From the UHGV virus genome UHGV-1370141: a DNA stretch of 64,000 nt. One strand, 5' to 3'. The DNA is from a virus. Below, piece after piece: positions 1 to 55,803 of this stretch (position 1 is the stretch's first letter; every line of letters starts with the position of its first letter). The translations under genes were made by a program, and so were the position numbers. The notes below the pieces were generated by a model, which worked only from the letters and a program-made list of their open reading frames with translations, ran no database searches and was not told the DNA's origin.

Positions 1-711
1 CCTAAAGGAATAATATATTTATAAATAAATATATTATACTATACGTGTGCGCACGCACACGCGTATAAGGAAGAGATCTTGAGATCAGGTTTTTGAGAGA
101 GTTAAATTTTTAAGATCGATCCGAGAGACTTGAGGTCTCTCGAGAGTATTTAAAAAACCAAGCAAGATAACTACTCAACTTGAATCTTCAGTGTGTGAAG
201 ATTCAAAACGTTGATCCAATCACTTGATCCGTTAGTACGCGAAGCGTGAATGTTTTTTTGATCGGCACGGCGGCTGGCCGTCGGGTGGCAGGGTCGGGTC
301 TCACCCACCCCCGGCAAGGGGTCGTACGCTTTCTCAATCGCTCCACATCGCGCTAAACGGGGTCAGGTAACCCAAGTGTACTGGGTAGGGGTAAAAACCG
401 CGTTAAAATCGTTTCTAGAGCGTTTTACGAAATCCGGTTAAAAAATCACCAACCGGATAGGGTTTCCAGAGACAATCCAGCACCCGGTTTTGGGGTTTGT
501 TGCGGTTTGGGTTAAAATAAATTCTTCGACAGGGAATAAAACCCCGTCAAATTCTTCCTGAGAAGCTCTCTAACGAGAAAAACTCACCCAGGGTATACGA
601 ACGTACCACCTCGACCTAAAAATGCGTTAGAATCGCTCTGAGGAGGTCGAAGTTTTTTTGGCAAAAAAAAAATAAAAAAAAACAGGTGGCCGAAGCCACC
701 CGATATTTTTT
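1..711. other. non-coding leader region with no ORF >=60 aa; AT-rich 5' part, 28-nt alternating purine-pyrimidine tract (approx 40..67), several short inverted repeats, GC-rich centre
   Basis: No ORF in six-frame track before 712; palindromes e.g. gagagac-ttgag-gtctctc (approx 123..141) and tgaatcttca-gtgtg-tgaagattca (approx 181..205). Confidence 0.5.
662..700 (-). terminator. intrinsic terminator for minus-strand transcripts (hairpin ggtggc-cgaa-gccacc followed on the minus strand by a long U-run)
   Basis: Stem approx 685..700; A-run 662..682 on plus strand is a T-run on minus; lies just downstream of the stop of CDS 712..1836. Confidence 0.5.
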
Positions 712-1836
712 TTACGGACAGACCTGTTCTTTCTGAGGGTAGTGCAGTTTTACCTCCAACAGGCTGTAGCCCGTGGCGTAGAAAATCTGACTCCCCACTG
801 AAGCCACAAAGCCTTCAGGGTCAATCACCTCAACGGAGAAATCCGATTCGAAAAGCCAGGTTTCTTGCTTACCGTCTCGTTCGAATACCGCTGCATAGCG
901 ACCGTACTCCGCACCCCGTCGGAAGCGGAAAAGCGTTAACCCTGTTTCACGTTCGTAACCGGAAATCACACCCCCTTCCTCGAAAATCTCGGCACGGTTA
1001 CAGCGGGTAACGGTCAATAACGCCGGTCGTTGTGTTGGAATGGTTTTGAACGGGGAAGGCCCTTCGTATGTCGTTGAGACCCAGTCTCCCATGTTGTCCA
1101 GCGCTAACGCTCGGTATGCGATAGGGGACTTGTAATTACACAGCCGATTCCCTTCCGTGTACATCGTGTATTCGATACGTAACGTCGTACCGACGATGTC
1201 TTCCAGGGAAAGTTTGTAGTGTTCTAACTGTGCCTGAATACGTCGTGAGAGTATCGTGCACAGGAAGGTGTGTCCTTCGGAAGAACGACAAACGATTCCG
1301 TAATCCGTTACGGCCAAAAGCGTCGCATCGGTTTTACGGACAGGTTCTAATCGGAATGTGTGTTCACCCGTTTCGATGATAAACTGGGAAACGGCTTGGT
1401 TACGGGATTTGACTTTAATCATGTCAAATACGTCACCGGCTTTTACGATTAATGGCTCAACAACGTTCACCTGGAAAGGCAAGGGTTTCGTGGGATACTG
1501 GCCTAGTGTGGTAATCGTTACCGAACTGAGTTCGGGGTCTGATGCGTCAGGGTCACTAGACAGCCAGTACGTTAACCACTTAGACAGCGTTTGTGGGATA
1601 ACACGGGTGGTGTAAAATAACACCTCGCCTTGTAACCCTGCTTCCGCCAGTTCTCGTGCTAAGAACGAGTTGACGGCGTCGTAAGTACCGTTACGCAGGA
1701 TGTCCATCCCACCGACTCTGTCCAGGTCACAAATCACGCCGTGAGGAAGCACCCACATCTTGACTTGTTGTTCGCGGTCGATGGTACCTTCACGCAACAT
1801 CTTGTGCCAAGCAGGTTTGCGCAGATAATTTCTCAT
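712..1836 (-). CDS. hypothetical protein (374 aa); ORF track gives 712..1869 from a GTG, but the ATG at 1836 has an AAAGGAG SD 8 nt upstream
   Basis: Long ORF; stop tta at 712..714; in-frame ATG (residue 12 of track ORF) preceded by AAAGGAG. Confidence 0.6.
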   Translation of the reverse strand: MRNYLRKPAWHKMLREGTIDREQQVKMWVLPHGVICDLDRVGGMDILRNGTYDAVNSFLARELAEAGLQGEVLFYTTRVIPQTLSKWLTYWLSSDPDASDPELSSVTITTLGQYPTKPLPFQVNVVEPLIVKAGDVFDMIKVKSRNQAVSQFIIETGEHTFRLEPVRKTDATLLAVTDYGIVCRSSEGHTFLCTILSRRIQAQLEHYKLSLEDIVGTTLRIEYTMYTEGNRLCNYKSPIAYRALALDNMGDWVSTTYEGPSPFKTIPTQRPALLTVTRCNRAEIFEEGGVISGYERETGLTLFRFRRGAEYGRYAAVFERDGKQETWLFESDFSVEVIDPEGFVASVGSQIFYATGYSLLEVKLHYPQKEQVCP

Positions 1837-1872
1837 GGTAAAAACTCCTTTAGGTAATAAGACTCTCACTAG

Positions 1873-1885
1873 GATAATATCTATC
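1873..1885 (-). promoter_or_regulatory. conserved AT-rich motif (plus-strand ATAATATCTATC), candidate phage promoter about 38 nt upstream of the minus gene start at 1836 and divergent to plus gene 1909
   Basis: Same 12-13 nt motif recurs at 46527..46539 and 55124..55136, related copy at 16661..16675, each 28-62 nt upstream of a minus-strand start codon. Confidence 0.3.
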
Positions 1886-1908
1886 CGTAATAATTTCGAG
1901 GTTCACTG

Positions 1909-3285
1909 ATGGCTGAACTGGTTTATGATTTTACCTCCGGTTGTTATCAAACCACCGGAACCCGCGTTGCTCAGGAATCGTTCGGTCACGACCCGTACTT
2001 CGACGACGCGGAAACCTCACCGGGTTTGTACTACGACTACGGTTTTGGTGGCTACGTACCGATGGGATTCTCCGTCGCTCACGAAGCCCGTCACGACGAC
2101 CGTTTACGTAAAGCGTTTGACAGCGTGTTTAACAAACTCGTGATTGATCGCAAGCTGGCGTCTAAGCTGCGTCACTACGTAAGCGGGATACTCTCTCGTG
2201 AAGGCAACGTGGAGTGGTTAGGGTCGAACCTCCTCGGTGTCCACAGCATTCGTTTTTTCGATTCTGACCGTAACCGTCTGTTCGATGAGGTGATTAACAT
2301 CGACGAAGACTATCTGTCAGAGTTGATTAAAGAGTCGCATTCCATCAATACCGATTGGCAGGTGGCGGGTGACACGTATAACCTGACCATCGTGTATCTG
2401 TTGCACCTGATGATTCCGAAGTTCGGTGACAAAGAGATTCTCGCTGCGGCTATCGACCTGGTGACGATTCTTCAGTTCAAATTTTACTCGAGTATTTACT
2501 ACCACTTCTTCCCGAAGCCGGTAGACTTACCTGCTGCCGAAGCCGCGTACTCGATGTTGTCGATGAAATTCGATATTCGTCGTTTAGGGAACTGGGGGTT
2601 GCACATGGCAGAACGTGCAACGTATTTCTGTTCTCCGGAATACCCTAACTACGATGCGGTAAAACGTTTCGATGCGCCGGATATGGTGTTGCGTTATATC
2701 ACCGACCTGAATACCCGTACGAAGCAAACCGTGAAAGACTACTACGCGGTGCTCGACCGTGTACGTCGTGAGAACGCTCGTGTGGTCAGCCAGTCGGCAC
2801 GTGTGGAATTAGACGGACAGTCGGTGATTCGTGACAAAGTCGGTGCGTTGGAAATCGCAAAACAGAACCTGTTTGATGCGTCTTACGATATCAACAATTT
2901 GTACAAAGAAGAGTTGGCGCGTGTGGTGCTGGAGATGGTACCGAAAGCGTCACCTGCGGCACTGAAAACGTTGCTGACGTATATCGCAGGACTCCCCATC
3001 GGGAAGAAACGTGATGAAGTTAACAGCATCATGGAAGACACGTTGTCTCACGCTTTTGACGAAATCGTTACCAACCGAATTAACTTCAATGATGCGGTCA
3101 CGGTATTACAGCGTATGCGTGCGTTGTACCAGGCGTCGAAATCGCCTAACCCGTATGTGTTGTCGTTGCGTTCTCGCATTGAGAAACTGGCAGCGAAAGA
3201 GACACACATTCGCCACGAGTCTGCGTTAGCTGCACTGCGTAACGCGCTACTGCTTTACTTCCTGATTCGTTCGTTACAGAAATAA
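1909..3285 (+). CDS. hypothetical protein (458 aa)
   Basis: Long ORF, ATG with GAGG SD about 6 nt upstream, followed by terminator hairpin. Confidence 0.65.
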   Translation: MAELVYDFTSGCYQTTGTRVAQESFGHDPYFDDAETSPGLYYDYGFGGYVPMGFSVAHEARHDDRLRKAFDSVFNKLVIDRKLASKLRHYVSGILSREGNVEWLGSNLLGVHSIRFFDSDRNRLFDEVINIDEDYLSELIKESHSINTDWQVAGDTYNLTIVYLLHLMIPKFGDKEILAAAIDLVTILQFKFYSSIYYHFFPKPVDLPAAEAAYSMLSMKFDIRRLGNWGLHMAERATYFCSPEYPNYDAVKRFDAPDMVLRYITDLNTRTKQTVKDYYAVLDRVRRENARVVSQSARVELDGQSVIRDKVGALEIAKQNLFDASYDINNLYKEELARVVLEMVPKASPAALKTLLTYIAGLPIGKKRDEVNSIMEDTLSHAFDEIVTNRINFNDAVTVLQRMRALYQASKSPNPYVLSLRSRIEKLAAKETHIRHESALAALRNALLLYFLIRSLQK

Positions 3286-3341: not shown

Positions 3342-3581
3342 TCAATGGGCCCCGGATACCGCTAATAGGTGGATGGTGTACACCAAGTTTAGAGCGTAAG
3401 TCGTTGATGTCCCTGCCACCATTAATCCGAATACTGCTACCGCCTGCGCATACCGCGTCGTACGATGACACACACCGTGCGATGCACCGTATCGTTCTAT
3501 CGATTGGTAACTGTGTCTAATCATTTTGTACGTCGCGATCCACGAAAAGAACACGAGCAAATAGTAAATTGGAGCCATCAC
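3342..3581 (-). CDS. small membrane protein (79 aa, two hydrophobic segments), translationally coupled to the upstream terminase gene
   Basis: ATG overlaps terminase stop (ATGA); hydrophobic stretches APIYYLLVFFSWIATY and AVAVFGLMVAGTSTTYALNLV. Confidence 0.45.
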   Translation of the reverse strand: MMAPIYYLLVFFSWIATYKMIRHSYQSIERYGASHGVCHRTTRYAQAVAVFGLMVAGTSTTYALNLVYTIHLLAVSGAH

Positions 3582-5686
3582 TTCATCCTCTGGCGTTGGA
3601 GAAGCTCTCTCAAGCTTTCCATTGACGCCACGTTTTGTGTATCAGTGTTAAGTTGAGAGATGAGGGCCTGAAGTCGGTTACGAGCGGCCATTGCTTGAAC
3701 CGGGTCGAGTAACCCGTGAGTCGTTCTCACTAACTGCTCAATTTCCCCCATCAGTTTTTGCTGTCGCGCTTCCTCTTCGAGCTGTAACTCTTCGTCCACC
3801 CCTTCCCGGTTTTCTGCCAAGTTACGATTACGCATCATCAATCGGCTGTTGTTGATCTCGTAATGTCCTAAGTTATTCCCAAGTAGCAATAACCACATCG
3901 CAAGTAACCAAGAAATCACAAGGTCATCGTGACCGGATGCTTTGTGGTCGATACGACCATTTTTCTCCACGAGGTTAAGAATTTGGTCGATGAGCTCTCC
4001 ACAACGGAGTTTATCGGCAGACAAGCGCAACGCGGTGGTGAATACCTCACCGTACAGTTTACGACGTTTCTCCTGGTCGGTTGAGAACCCGATGTATTTG
4101 CGGAATTTATTCCAGAATTTCTCTGCGCTCCCCACTGGGCCACGGTGATACTCTTTGTAGAGATCGTCCGTACGCGAGTAGTCCTGGGTGATTCGCACAA
4201 ACAAACGACGGTGTAAATCGGGTACCCGTGATTGCAATTGCAGGATAACCGCATCTGCAACGGATGAGCCTGTTGAGCGTCGTTCCAGAATCAGTACCGT
4301 GTTCGGATATCGCACCATAAAATCCGCTAAATGGATCGCGAACGAAATAACGTTGGATTCATTAACGGTAAGCTTACCGGCGTACTCGGCCGTGACTGAG
4401 TTGACGATGGACATGGCGATCGCATCTCGACCTACGGCTTCGGAGGTATCCAAACCGATGACATGACGATCTTTGAGTTTCATCATCATTTCTTCTTCGG
4501 TGTAGTACCAGTCGGTAACGTAGTTTTGTGGCGAGATATCTTTGAACACTGCACGCATTCGTGAAGCATTCATACGATCTGCATCTTCCGCTGAGAACGG
4601 CTTGTTCAGACCACCGGTCGTCCATTCGCCACCGAAGTCACGACGGATCTGGTCAGGGGTACCTTTGGCGTTCGCAATCATTGCCGCTAACTGTTCATCT
4701 GTGGTCCCGAGCTGACGGTGGTTGTACTTCACGTAGAACATGATACGTGGGACTTCTGCCGTGGAGTTAGAACGGATGATGTCAATGAGCTGTTTACGGG
4801 TTGGAATGTCGATATAGCGCTCATCCCACATAATCCCTGACGTCATCAGCTCGTACATGTACTTGCCTTCTTCCGTCGCTAAGTCACCAGGGGTTGTTGC
4901 GAATACGTTACCGTAAGGAACACCTTCCGCTTCGTTAATACGACGTGCCGCTGTACCGGATGCCAGCGCTGCCGGTAGAATGTGGTGTACGTTTTTGGTA
5001 AAGGGGCCTTCGTCCGAGAACAGACGACCAGCAGTAAGTCCACGACCGATACCGTTAGCGGACTCTGGGTCGTTTTGGCCGATACCTGTAATCAGTTTAT
5101 TACCCTGAGCTAAACACGCAAAGGTTTCTCGGTTATCTGGGTCATCAGGATGCGCTGGCCAGAGGTAACTCGGTAAACCGTTACGAAGTTGTTTCAGTTT
5201 GTTGATAGTTTCTTCACGCAGTGCCGGGCCTTTTGTGATAAGAATTGTTCGGGAGTTTTCTAAGAAACGAATCAACCACAGCAGTAAACCACTCATCCCG
5301 ACGGTTTTACCGTGCTGACGCAAGAACTCGACAGCAACGTCGATGTTGTTAAAGAAAATCCAGTACATCGAGAAGTTACCACGGTCGATACGGAACGGGG
5401 AACCGTACTTCATACCGTCCGCAGGCACCCTGACACATTCCCTGAACCAGTACCACGGGTTCTCAGCACATTCGATGGCGATGTATGCCTTCATCTGTTC
5501 TGAAAGGTTTTCATCGAACGGGTCTACGCCCTGCAACAGTGGGTTATGCAACGCCAGGTGAATATACCAGTGTTTGACACCCAGTTTTTTCAGTAAGTTA
5601 GCAAACTTGATAAAGGATTTGTTTGTTGTTTTATCGTCAACAATAGCGCCTGGATAATAACGCCAGTCCGATTCACGTAGTATCAT
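3578..5686 (-). CDS. terminase large subunit (ATPase plus nuclease), 702 aa
   Basis: Walker A-like FLRQHGKT; C-terminal RNase H-like nuclease motifs VIGLDTSEAVGRD and GHDDLVISW; ATG with AGGAG SD. Confidence 0.6.
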   Translation of the reverse strand: MILRESDWRYYPGAIVDDKTTNKSFIKFANLLKKLGVKHWYIHLALHNPLLQGVDPFDENLSEQMKAYIAIECAENPWYWFRECVRVPADGMKYGSPFRIDRGNFSMYWIFFNNIDVAVEFLRQHGKTVGMSGLLLWLIRFLENSRTILITKGPALREETINKLKQLRNGLPSYLWPAHPDDPDNRETFACLAQGNKLITGIGQNDPESANGIGRGLTAGRLFSDEGPFTKNVHHILPAALASGTAARRINEAEGVPYGNVFATTPGDLATEEGKYMYELMTSGIMWDERYIDIPTRKQLIDIIRSNSTAEVPRIMFYVKYNHRQLGTTDEQLAAMIANAKGTPDQIRRDFGGEWTTGGLNKPFSAEDADRMNASRMRAVFKDISPQNYVTDWYYTEEEMMMKLKDRHVIGLDTSEAVGRDAIAMSIVNSVTAEYAGKLTVNESNVISFAIHLADFMVRYPNTVLILERRSTGSSVADAVILQLQSRVPDLHRRLFVRITQDYSRTDDLYKEYHRGPVGSAEKFWNKFRKYIGFSTDQEKRRKLYGEVFTTALRLSADKLRCGELIDQILNLVEKNGRIDHKASGHDDLVISWLLAMWLLLLGNNLGHYEINNSRLMMRNRNLAENREGVDEELQLEEEARQQKLMGEIEQLVRTTHGLLDPVQAMAARNRLQALISQLNTDTQNVASMESLRELLQRQRMK

Positions 5687-16599: not shown

Positions 16600-16660
16600 C
16601 TTTAATACTCCTTTAGGTTAACAAGTCGAATAGCGTGTAATTCTACAACGCTCACCTAAG

Positions 16661-16675
16661 TAATATATATCTAAG
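16661..16675 (-). promoter_or_regulatory. AT-rich promoter-like motif (plus-strand TAATATATATCTAAG; minus strand reads CTTAGATATATATTA) about 62 nt upstream of the minus gene start at 16599
   Basis: Related to the ATAATATCTATC motif at three other sites. Confidence 0.25.
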
Positions 16676-16689
16676 ATATTTTTCAATAG

Positions 16690-16733
16690 GGCTAAAAATA
16701 AGTAGGGTAGTCTATCCAATGGATAGACTACCC
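16690..16733 (-). terminator. intrinsic terminator (stem gggtagtctatcc / ggatagactaccc, loop aat, U-run on minus strand)
   Basis: 13-bp perfect stem directly downstream of minus gene 16742..17293. Confidence 0.6.
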
Positions 16734-38391: not shown

Positions 38392-38419
38392 TTTAAAACT
38401 CCATTAGATTAAACAAAAA

Positions 38420-38454
38420 AAGAATAAAGATTAGGGGTGCTACATAAGCACCCC
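38420..38454 (-). terminator. intrinsic terminator (stem ggggtgct / agcacccc, U-run on minus strand)
   Basis: 8-bp stem directly downstream of small ORF 38463..38606. Confidence 0.5.
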
Positions 38455-38462
38455 GTGAACTG

Positions 38463-38606
38463 TTAAATTTTGCAAGCCCCGCCTGAGCAGTTATCGTCTT
38501 CCGTAGTTGGGTCAGCACCCTTCTCTACGGTAGCTTCCGGGTCTAAGCCAGGGATTGCAAATTCGTCAGTTTCTTTAACGGTTTCTACTTTAACTTCTTC
38601 AGTCAT
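38463..38606 (-). CDS. small acidic peptide (47 aa) ending in Cys-containing CSGGACKI; translationally coupled to upstream small ORF
   Basis: Hand translation MTEEVKVETVKETDEFAIPGLDPEATVEKGADPTTEDDNCSGGACKI; ATG overlaps upstream TGA (ATGA); terminator follows. Confidence 0.35.
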   Translation of the reverse strand: MTEEVKVETVKETDEFAIPGLDPEATVEKGADPTTEDDNCSGGACKI

Positions 38607-38827
38607 TTTTTAGTTTCCAAATTTCTTACAAAGGGGTTAATAGTTTTGATTTTAAGGTTAGCGAACGGCGACAGAAGTTTCACCATCGGTGCTAGACCTG
38701 GCGGCGTCTCTTTATATCGCACGATGCGCACTTTCGATTTACCAGGACCCTTACGTACACGGTTGTAGCCAATAAAATATAGAGCACCTGTAAAGAATCT
38801 CAGGCTGTGAAATCGTGGTTTTTTCAT
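38603..38827 (-). CDS. small basic protein (74 aa)
   Basis: In ORF track; start overlaps stop of upstream 49-aa ORF (TGATG); shares RKGP.K motif with it. Confidence 0.4.
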   Translation of the reverse strand: MKKPRFHSLRFFTGALYFIGYNRVRKGPGKSKVRIVRYKETPPGLAPMVKLLSPFANLKIKTINPFVRNLETKK

Positions 38828-38976
38828 CAGACATCCCCAAAAGCCAGAAAGCGTTTACGACCCTTGTGTGGTCCTTTACGCCAGCGACTAGCGATAGTTT
38901 TACGATTTACTTTGCAACGGATTCTCTTATTCAGATTGATATACTTTATAGTAACTTTAATGACATCATTCGTCAT
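38827..38976 (-). CDS. small basic protein (49 aa; MTNDVIKVTIKYINLNKRIRCKVNRKTIASRWRKGPHKGRKRFLAFGDV)
   Basis: Hand translation; below 60-aa track threshold; GAGGG SD upstream; coupled to the 74-aa ORF. Confidence 0.35.
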   Translation of the reverse strand: MTNDVIKVTIKYINLNKRIRCKVNRKTIASRWRKGPHKGRKRFLAFGDV

Positions 38977-38997
38977 AAAGAATTCCCTCATCATTAA

Positions 38998-46498: not shown

Positions 46499-46526
46499 AA
46501 TTCACTCCGAAAGAATGTCTCACGTA

Positions 46527-46539
46527 AATAATATCTGTC
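46527..46539 (-). promoter_or_regulatory. conserved AT-rich motif (plus-strand AATAATATCTGTC), candidate promoter in divergent region
   Basis: 29 nt upstream of minus gene start 46498; about 32 nt upstream of plus gene start 46571. Confidence 0.3.
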
Positions 46540-46570
46540 TGACTTCTTTTTGAAAATGAGGTGGTTTTAA

Positions 46571-55094: not shown

Positions 55095-55123
55095 GGTGAC
55101 TAACTCCGAGGGTTCTACACCTG

Positions 55124-55136
55124 AATAATATCTATC
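55124..55136 (-). promoter_or_regulatory. conserved AT-rich motif (plus-strand AATAATATCTATC), candidate promoter 30 nt upstream of minus gene start 55094
   Basis: Third exact copy of the ATAATATCT core. Confidence 0.3.
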
Positions 55137-55803
55137 TAAGAAAGTTTTTAGCGAAATAGGGATCGATGTGAAACGCTTTCACGAGAGAATCATAGCCGGA
55201 GTGAATCTGATCGGAGTTGAGCAGGAAACGGTCTAGATCGTGAGGCAATATCCAGGCGTCACCTTGTTTGAAAATAGTGTGACCTACAGTTTCTGGAGAA
55301 AATCGAATTTCTTCCGGGAAGGGATACGTTTGCTTCAAATCGAGGTCGGTGGGTTTTAAGGTAACTAAACGAACGGGTCGTTTACTGGCCACCTCCTTAA
55401 CGAATTGGTTACGATCAAACCAGATAATCTTTTCAGGGTAGCTTTCCAGCTCACTCCAGACCTTGTTAATCACCAGATTAAAGTTCTGTTGCAGTTCCCC
55501 GGATTGGTTAGCGTAACCTAAGCACTCTTCTACCAAAGCTGGATTACCGTAAGTGTTAGTAATAACCTGTGCAATCACACGTTGTGGGAAACAATCTTTC
55601 GGTATATCACAACCTGCATTGTACAATGCAATGATTTCCCACAATGAGCGTAAGGCAAGTTCAAGTGACACTTCCCCGAGTGTATAGTGGTCGTCAGAAT
55701 AGGGGGCTTTAAAGCCCCACTGCTGACGCGCAATTGCTGAAAAGCGTATCTGGATATAACTCGGTGCCATCGATAACGCTTGACTAAAAACAATCAGCAT
55801 CAA
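55132..55803 (-). CDS. hypothetical protein (223 aa)
   Basis: ORF, 4-nt overlap with upstream gene. Confidence 0.5.
   Translation of the reverse strand: MMLIVFSQALSMAPSYIQIRFSAIARQQWGFKAPYSDDHYTLGEVSLELALRSLWEIIALYNAGCDIPKDCFPQRVIAQVITNTYGNPALVEECLGYANQSGELQQNFNLVINKVWSELESYPEKIIWFDRNQFVKEVASKRPVRLVTLKPTDLDLKQTYPFPEEIRFSPETVGHTIFKQGDAWILPHDLDRFLLNSDQIHSGYDSLVKAFHIDPYFAKNFLR

Follow-up and report, generated by a model that had tools for sequence, protein, structure and literature searches.

The 64,000-nt stretch of the virus genome UHGV-1370141 analysed here (hereafter the window, whose coordinates 1–64,000 are used throughout) opens with 711 bp that hold no gene, which raises the question of what these bases do. 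A sequence-only reading had put forward three possibilities: a genome terminus or packaging region, a replication origin, or a structured non-coding RNA locus. We find that bases 1–711 are the right half of a single-copy, gene-free, internal locus of approximately 2 kb in a jumbo phage of the SPN3US/phiEaH2-like type, and that the feature is real, non-random and conserved. It is very probably a conserved cis-element, whatever its function. As for that function, replication origin of the phage is the most likely one and is preferred over a packaging (pac) site, although we hold this assignment tentatively and with less than even confidence.

The anatomy described in the sequence-only reading was borne out throughout. 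No open reading frame (ORF) of 60 amino acids or more lies within 1–711; the sole small ORFs are three of 36–48 amino acids at 171–356, which show no conservation and are all disrupted by a 1-nt indel in a T run in strain L136. Across the whole 64 kb, frames of 100 codons are absent for longest over 1–641; the runner-up of 594 nt, at 38404–38997, contains short minus-strand ORFs, is of ordinary composition and has none of the features of 1–711. Not a single G or C occurs across positions 9–38, whereas every 30-mer elsewhere in the window has at least three. The 28-nt alternating purine/pyrimidine run occupies exactly 40–67 and exceeds all others in the window, the second longest measuring 16; in 200 dinucleotide shuffles of the window the longest such run averaged 16.4 and never exceeded 22. 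The palindromes are likewise present (gatcgatc at 114–121, an 8-bp stem at 122–142, 11-bp arms at 180–206 and 8-bp arms at 432–458), and further inverted repeats were found with 13-bp arms at 10–37 and 8-bp arms at 44–61. Seven distinct perfect inverted repeats have a stem of at least 6 bp, compared with 2.0 ± 1.5 in shuffled sequence, a number reached by 0 of 300 shuffles; the longest stems, of 13 and 11 bp, compare with a shuffle mean of 5.8, and DNA folding of the inverted repeats gave z-scores of −3.4 to −5.1. The GC-rich segment reaches 64% guanine plus cytosine (GC) at 251–350, between flanks of 33–45%. Absent from the earlier list was a cluster of GATC sites, seven of which fall in 75–263, compared with a maximum of three per 200 bp elsewhere; the whole window holds 160 GATC, below the shuffle mean of 220.

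Is the start of the window an end of the genome? Same-species contigs, found by exact-protein look-up with the product of gene 1909–3285, answer against the terminus that had been proposed: in 10 independent contigs of 202–226 kb the locus is internal, at contig coordinates ranging from ~200 to ~210,000, the contigs being circular permutations of each other. To the left of window position 1 they continue uninterrupted into the rest of an A+T core of ~180 bp and 95% A+T, inside which position 1 falls. The locus is also internal in seven further lineages, namely SaP7, phiEaH2, SPAsTU, QZLY01000003.1 and three IMG/VR lineages. The sequence-only reading had allowed that a region both internal and coding, or one without conservation in relatives, would speak against it; the region is indeed internal, but it is neither coding nor unconserved.

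Several assemblies nevertheless end in the core: 4 of ~20 do so, these being the window, IMG/VR L003, SKEP01000003.1 and ERZ791601 NODE_6. L003 and SKEP01000003.1 are each ~98% identical to the window and each stop at window position 26, a SPN3US-type SPAdes contig stops inside the equivalent CCTAAAGG motif, and GenBank records starting in the same A+T stretch include Proteus phage 7 and SPFM2. Since a low-complexity, internally repetitive A+T stretch is hard to assemble, contigs would break there, and the simplest reading of a window that starts in the middle of an element is an assembly break. The A+T core is thus a recurrent assembly breakpoint, and contig or record starts within it should not be taken for genome ends. 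A separate peculiarity was seen in 11 SPFM GenBank records (SPFM1 LR535901.1, at 1900–2700 of L134, and 10 others), where the region, near the start of the record, is cut into ~60-nt blocks whose order is reversed; an artefact of deposit or formatting, and not biology, seems to lie behind this, and BLAST matches are split by it into 11–21 pieces.

Comparison of eight lineages, read in window orientation, revealed the following order of parts in the whole locus.

Part 1, left of the window: ~0.9 kb of conserved non-coding DNA.
Part 2: the box GATCTCNTAATAAGGATC(A/G)CGCG.
Part 3: the A+T core, 37–180 bp at 3–11% GC, with one or two mini-palindromes (CCTAAAGG, TCTAAAGA, CCCTACGGG, CTCGAAGAG).
Part 4: a GC box with an alternating purine/pyrimidine run of 15–28 nt, ending CGCGTATAA(G/T)GAA.
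Part 5: a GATC-rich flank with A/T-tract palindromes and 3–5 inverted repeats.
Part 6: the box TGATCGNCNCGGCGG.
Part 7: a variable GC-rich segment.
Part 8: the islands ACCCAAGTGTAC, TTCTAGAGCGTTTT and GGTTAAAAA.
Part 9: the intrinsic terminator of the next minus-strand gene.

The eight lineages keep this architecture without detectable megablast similarity to each other. All eight have an alternating run right of the core, though its sequence differs, and two different GC boxes are present, one on each side of the core. GATC sites number 3–6 per 300 bp to the left of the core and 4–8 to the right in every lineage. Stem sequences covary across lineages, and the strong stems are all fully Watson-Crick: the stem at 180–206 reads TTGAATCTTCA-GTGTG-TGAAGATTCAA in the window, GTAACCGACA-GTGTG-TGTCGGTTAC in SaP7 and GTAATTCGCA-GAGA-TGCGAATTAC in phiEaH2. 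The locus also stands alone within its genome. In the complete SaP7 genome (240,613 bp), the 100-bp window with the lowest GC is the core, at 5% (next 25%), and the densest GATC cluster is the locus, with seven per 300 bp (next five). A pattern scan of metagenomes with CACGCGTATAAKGAAR returned 120 hits, mostly noise, from which blastn against the window and the SaP7 locus kept three relatives (L017, L076, L099).

The left half of the locus (3570–4500 of L002, from SaP7; ~6830–7900 of L136) has a character of its own. It carries long blocks that are highly conserved in six lineages (CCCCTCTCGTCT..CCGAGCCGCCAAGAT, GCCGAATTCG, GGTAAGTTC, GCTGCCACGGTA, ACCTGAATGGGTGG, AGTGTTAGGCTG, CTCGAAAAAG) and lies upstream of an HslV-like peptidase gene and tRNA genes. 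This half could be a large structured RNA or leader; an Rfam search of it gave no match. The neighbourhood further left is hypervariable: the genes just left of the locus (~4165–6818 in L135–L144) have a gut-strain diversity of 0.12, compared with 0.02–0.03 elsewhere, and their gene calls differ.

The right half, which the window contains, is made up as follows.

1–39: the last 39 bp of the A+T core, whose full length of ~180 bp at ~95% A+T is seen in same-species contigs L135–L140.
1–8: the mini-palindrome CCTAAAGG, which opens the window and is followed at 10–37 by the inverted repeat with 13-bp arms.
40–73: the GC box, a 28-nt perfectly alternating purine/pyrimidine quasi-palindrome at 40–67 (arms 44–51 and 54–61), then the conserved CGCGTATAAGGAAG.
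74–265: the most constrained flank, with GATC at 75, 83, 114, 118, 213, 226 and 260 and the A/T-tract motif AAATTTTTAA.
122–142, 180–206 (loop GTGTG) and 236–248 (a GCGAAGC mini-hairpin): the inverted repeats of this flank.
258–272: the conserved box TGATCGGCACGGCGG, which borders the GC-rich segment and in which TGATCG.C..GGCG is nearly invariant among nine sequences.
266–365: the GC-rich segment, 64% GC, differing in sequence and length by lineage, with indels in the multi-lineage alignment and with GC hairpins particular to each lineage.
366–445: conserved islands, ACCCAAGTGTACTGGGT at 370–386, TTCTAGAGCGTTTTACGA at 413–430 and GGTTAAAAA at 436–444.
432–458: the inverted repeat ATCCGGTT...AACCGGAT (z = −3.9), in place of which QZLY01000003.1 has a different hairpin at the same position.
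459–682: a less conserved spacer with the short islands AAAATAAATTC, CAAATTCTTC, TACGAACGTACC and CGTTAGAATCGCTCT, missing from lineages of the Erwinia-phage type.
653–702, minus strand: the intrinsic terminator of gene 712–1869 (z = −5.5), a hairpin at 683–702 with stem GGTGGC-UUCG-GCCACC, then a long U tract.

Which of these parts are held in place by selection on their sequence? Against QZLY01000003.1, a relative that is 76% identical over the first 2 kb, identity is 92% in 1–73 (96% in bases 1–50) and 85% in 74–265, then 57% in 266–365, 58% in 366–445 and 64% in 446–682; the corresponding figures are 77% for gene 712–1869, 82% for gene 1909–3285 and 89% for the large terminase gene. This relative keeps all seven GATC sites. 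Among 10 gut strains that are ~96% identical overall, nucleotide diversity is 0.014–0.015 in 1–265 (0.014 in 74–265) and 0.03–0.04 in 266–682 (0.043 in the GC-rich segment 266–365), compared with 0.020–0.027 in the three genes (0.024 in the terminase gene), and the A+T core shows few point changes and two indels. High identity to the relative and low strain diversity together show that 1–265 is constrained in its primary sequence, loops, spacers and all seven GATC sites included, and that the distal part of the region is only loosely constrained. At the centre of the GC box, positions 52–53 are TG in some strains and CA, its reverse complement, in others (L135, L139, L140, L144 and L017 on one side; the window, L136–L138 and L003 on the other), while the arms at 44–51 and 54–61 are unchanged. 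A template switch or an inversion through the hairpin would produce such a flip, which suggests that the hairpin forms in vivo. Among GenBank phages, megablast of 1–711 gave no match, and blastn matched only the 80-nt island at 366–445, at 77.5% identity to SaP7 and MET_P1_082_240, where the counterpart is syntenic and carries no annotation.

What, then, could such an element be for? In lytic phages, single-copy, non-coding and strongly conserved DNA elements are usually origins or packaging sites. We favour an origin because the near-pure A+T core would be an extreme unwinding element in a genome of ~50% GC, because GC-rich clamps lie on both sides of the core and hairpin-forming repeats lie in and beside it, because the clade has a conserved Dam-family methylase to go with the GATC cluster, and, as weak context, because the adjacent gene has an ATP-dependent DNA-ligase fold and the SaP7 annotation includes a UvsX-like recombinase and an RNase H. 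In this model the A+T core would act as the DNA-unwinding element, and the alternating purine/pyrimidine GC palindromes on both sides would clamp it and may absorb superhelical stress. The conserved TAAGGA/GATC boxes and inverted repeats beside the core would then serve as recognition or loading signals, and the GATC cluster would tie the activity of the element to methylation by the phage's own Dam-type methylase.

Several points weigh against an origin. Cumulative GC and AT skew over the whole of SaP7 shows no turn at the locus, although the GC skew is dominated by gene orientation. No DnaA box (TTATNCACA) with at most one mismatch was found in 1–711, and the left conserved box, considered as a counterpart of the middle 13-mer of E. 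coli oriC (GATCTCTTATTAGGATC; reference sequence verified in 5,425 genomes), reached an alignment score of 25 against a shuffle maximum of 26, which is chance; given the lack of DnaA boxes and this chance-level likeness, the locus is not a host-type origin. Searches of Pfam and PHROGs identified no initiator gene among the flanking proteins, and no promoter of the kind that T4/T7-type origins require next to the core was recognised in 1–760. Assemblies that end in the core could also be produced by true DNA ends in a fraction of molecules, and the flanking GATC clusters, the phage Dam and a terminase 3 kb away fit a P1-like pac site about equally well.

The strongest competitor is a pac site of a headful-packaging phage, similar to that of P1, which we regard as possible but rather doubtful. 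Here the terminase would bind the GATC repeats on both flanks and make its first cut in or near the A+T core, and Dam methylation of GATC would gate cleavage so that only some copies in a concatemer are cut. In every lineage the core has GATC clusters on either side, with all seven of the window's sites conserved, in a clade that has its own Dam-family methylase and in a sequence where GATC is otherwise depleted; the locus is single-copy and close to the large terminase gene, and four assemblies end, and the records of Proteus phage 7 and SPFM2 start, within the core. A/T tracts could bend DNA around a small terminase, as at the SPP1 and P1 pac sites. On the other side, no small terminase subunit is known or detectable nearby, and the GATC hexamer contexts of the locus are mixed (AGATCT, AGATCA, TGATCC, TGATCG and CGATCC) and depart from the P1 consensus TGATCA/G. 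We know of no characterised pac site that includes a 100–180-bp stretch of ~95% A+T, which also counts against this explanation. The contig ends are explained equally well by failure to assemble the A+T stretch, and the 10 same-species contigs and seven related lineages read through it. For SPN3US-type and Erwinia jumbo phages, T4-like headful packaging has been assumed in the literature only from terminase homology, with base 1 set by alignment.

As either origin or pac site, the locus may be the single master cis-site of SPN3US-type jumbo phages, with an architecture not reported before that combines a near-pure A+T core bearing hairpin-forming mini-palindromes, clamps of Z-DNA-prone alternating GC palindromes and GATC flanks gated by the phage's own Dam; we put this forward as a speculative proposal. 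If true, it would give this group of phiKZ-related phages its first defined start site for replication or packaging. The literature on termini, origins, pac sites and promoters of SPN3US and phiKZ contains no description of this locus that we could find, nor did we find a paper that defines an origin or packaging-initiation site for jumbo phages of the phiKZ/SPN3US type. The locus, so far the best candidate for the place where these phages begin replication or packaging, therefore offers an experimental target of a few hundred bp.

Does the element act as DNA or as RNA? The structured non-coding RNA of the sequence-only reading found no positive support, with Rfam, strand bias and promoter searches all giving null results. 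An Rfam covariance search of the window and its relatives returned no match at gathering level (the best sub-threshold scores were 17–22 bits, against cut-offs of 44–100), relaxing the threshold to E values up to 1 added nothing but two chance-level matches, and ARAGORN found no tRNA. Minimum free energies and G-U counts over 7–8 lineages gave no consistent strand preference. Two conserved classes of promoter-like motif were derived from SaP7 and the window, class a being CTNAAAG..N..AGATAGATATTATCT and class b being TTTCAGATATATATTACCTAGGTGAGAG followed by a 5' hairpin; SaP7 has 16 copies of class a and seven of class b, nearly all on the gene-sense strand and just upstream of genes. The window has four such sites, all on the minus strand:

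1856–1907, minus strand: class a site, ...GGATAGATATTATCC..., a candidate driver of gene 712–1869.
~16640–16695, minus strand: promoter-like site.
~46510–46563, minus strand: promoter-like site.
~55107–55160, minus strand: promoter-like site.

Neither class is present in 1–760, where the best score of a position-weight scan was below 0, compared with 31–65 bits at real sites, and both are also absent from the SaP7 locus. No plus-strand terminator with an adjacent U tract occurs in 1–711, the sole terminator being the one that serves the minus-strand gene 712–1869. That hairpin has what an intrinsic terminator calls for, an 8-pair stem, a UUCG loop and a T9-A-T10 tract starting 2 bases past the stem, and the stem sits 10 nt downstream of the stop codon of gene 712–1869. 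When the hairpin at 683–702 is read on the plus strand, the T run begins 5 nt past the stem. A positive control for the strand comparison is the homologous terminator stem of phiEaH2, which, read from its sequence, requires two G-U pairs possible only on the minus-strand RNA.

A transcribed structured RNA or long leader could still be driven by a promoter that lacks a recognisable sequence, for example one of a late class, and the late promoters of phiKZ-type phages are almost without a sequence signature (PMC7598289). Approximately 6–8 successive hairpins hold their position although the sequences of their stems differ from lineage to lineage, consensus folding slightly favours the plus strand (−82.9 compared with −71.1 kcal/mol), and the conserved blocks of the left half, outside the window, look RNA-like. 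Against these stand the Rfam result, the lack of a consistent strand preference, the absence of early- or middle-type promoters and of a plus-strand terminator, and the conservation of 1–265 in its primary sequence, loops, spacers and GATC sites included, beyond what pairing asks for. We therefore consider an RNA improbable; the evidence favours an element acting as DNA.

An ordinary intergenic spacer, made of the neighbour's terminator and drifting filler, with features that arise from composition or assembly, is very unlikely. It would suit the poor conservation of 459–682 and 266–365, the former missing from some lineages, the hairpin and U tract at 653–702, which are a plain terminator, and a window start that is an assembly artefact. 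Yet 1–265 is less diverse among strains than the terminase gene, the architecture is held across eight lineages without megablast similarity, the alternating run, palindromes and GATC cluster all lie beyond the shuffle controls, and in composition the locus has no equal within a 240-kb genome.

Very unlikely too, and largely refuted by the internal position, is a true physical end, with fixed termini or a telomere-resolution (hairpin-end) site like N15 telRL: the window and at least three other contigs do stop in the core, the alternating quasi-palindrome of the GC box has TATACG at one edge and CGTATA at the other (its TATACG...CGCGTATA form presumably resembling the N15 telRL core TATACGCGCGTATA, a likeness to telO), and the CA/TG flip may be taken as a sign that a hairpin forms at some stage, but the locus is internal with unique, different flanks in 10 same-species and seven related assemblies, the same-species contigs are circularly permuted, the GC-box palindrome is imperfect (arms 85% complementary, with a perfect part of 8 bp), two distinct GC boxes flank the core where one resolution site would be expected, and the SaP7 annotation lists neither a protelomerase nor an integrase.

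The identity of the phage rests on its neighbouring genes. The large terminase (3578–5686, minus strand) encodes a protein 81–85% identical to those of Erwinia phages Asesino and phiEaH2 and Salmonella phage SPN3US, and genes near it encode phiKZ-type structural domains; for these two reasons we assign the window to a SPN3US/phiEaH2-like jumbo phage. A 79-amino-acid ORF at 3342–3581 (minus strand) overlaps the terminase stop by 4 nt and is kept in SaP7 (80 amino acids) and in gut strains (78 amino acids). The exact protein of gene 1909–3285 is indexed in 526 blocks of public assemblies, 57 of them with contigs above 200 kb, of which at least one (L138) is labelled as human-gut metagenome, and the species is common in human-gut metagenomes. 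Its genome is ~223 kb, with genome-length contigs of 222–226 kb, and its circular assembly is in keeping with a phage whose DNA is circularly permuted and packaged by headful.

The gene that flanks the locus is the following.

712–1869, minus strand: a gene for a 385-amino-acid protein with an ATP-dependent DNA-ligase-like fold (AlphaFold2, predicted local distance difference test score 85).

The top Foldseek matches of this model in the PDB are the DNA ligases of Chlorella virus, African swine fever virus, T4 and T7, and LigE (E values 6e-6 to 1e-4). The protein has no Pfam hit and is called hypothetical in most records, and neither Pfam nor PHROGs assigned a function to the flanking proteins. 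A KxDG motif is not obvious in it, the corresponding stretch being VKMWVLPHG.

Elsewhere in its genome, SaP7 is annotated with a UvsX-like recombinase and an RNase H. Its methylase matches the D12 family (PF02086, E value 2.5e-52) and is 45–48% identical to enterobacterial Dam, an identity from which we infer that the clade's methylase is probably specific for GATC. Dam-family homologues, 67–68% identical, are present on 222–224-kb contigs of the clade. The D12 methylase gene adjoins a GNAT acetyltransferase gene both in SaP7 (L130, 17934–18728) and in a 222.8-kb clade contig (L145, 301–1116), and GATC is under-represented genome-wide even with the phage methylase present.

How does the locus compare with known systems? 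It resembles E. coli oriC and P1 oriR in being a unique, non-coding locus with a strongly A+T-rich segment and an excess of GATC in a genome that encodes Dam. Unlike them, it has no DnaA boxes and its likeness to the oriC 13-mer is at chance; its GATC sites are placed beside the A+T core instead of within it, and that core, at up to 180 bp and 95% A+T, is much longer and purer and lies between alternating purine/pyrimidine GC palindromes. With the primary origin of T7 and with oriF and oriG of T4, where a promoter and an A+T unwinding region allow R-loop priming, it shares an A+T-rich candidate for unwinding in a non-coding gap, and the phage, too, is lytic, has RNA polymerases of its own and encodes a UvsX-type recombinase, but neither recognisable promoter class lies within 760 bp of it. 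The N15 telRL/telO site likewise has an alternating purine/pyrimidine palindrome framed by TATACG...CGTATA, whereas the palindrome of the locus is imperfect and internal, belongs to two different boxes and occurs in relatives without an annotated protelomerase. Like the SPP1 pac site (pacL-pacC-pacR, with bent DNA), the locus is multipartite, non-coding and a few hundred bp in extent, and has A/T tracts and repeats on either side of a centre; the two differ in that the locus has no sequence similarity to it and no identified small terminase. The P1 pac site also has short GATC repeats on both sides and is single-copy, near terminase genes and accompanied by a Dam-type methylase of the phage's own, but the locus is several times larger, does not lie inside a small-terminase gene and has hexamers that depart from TGATCA/G, and its cleavage and methylation dependence are hypothetical. 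Taken together, these comparisons liken the element most to a Dam-linked origin or pac site, without making it a member of any named family.

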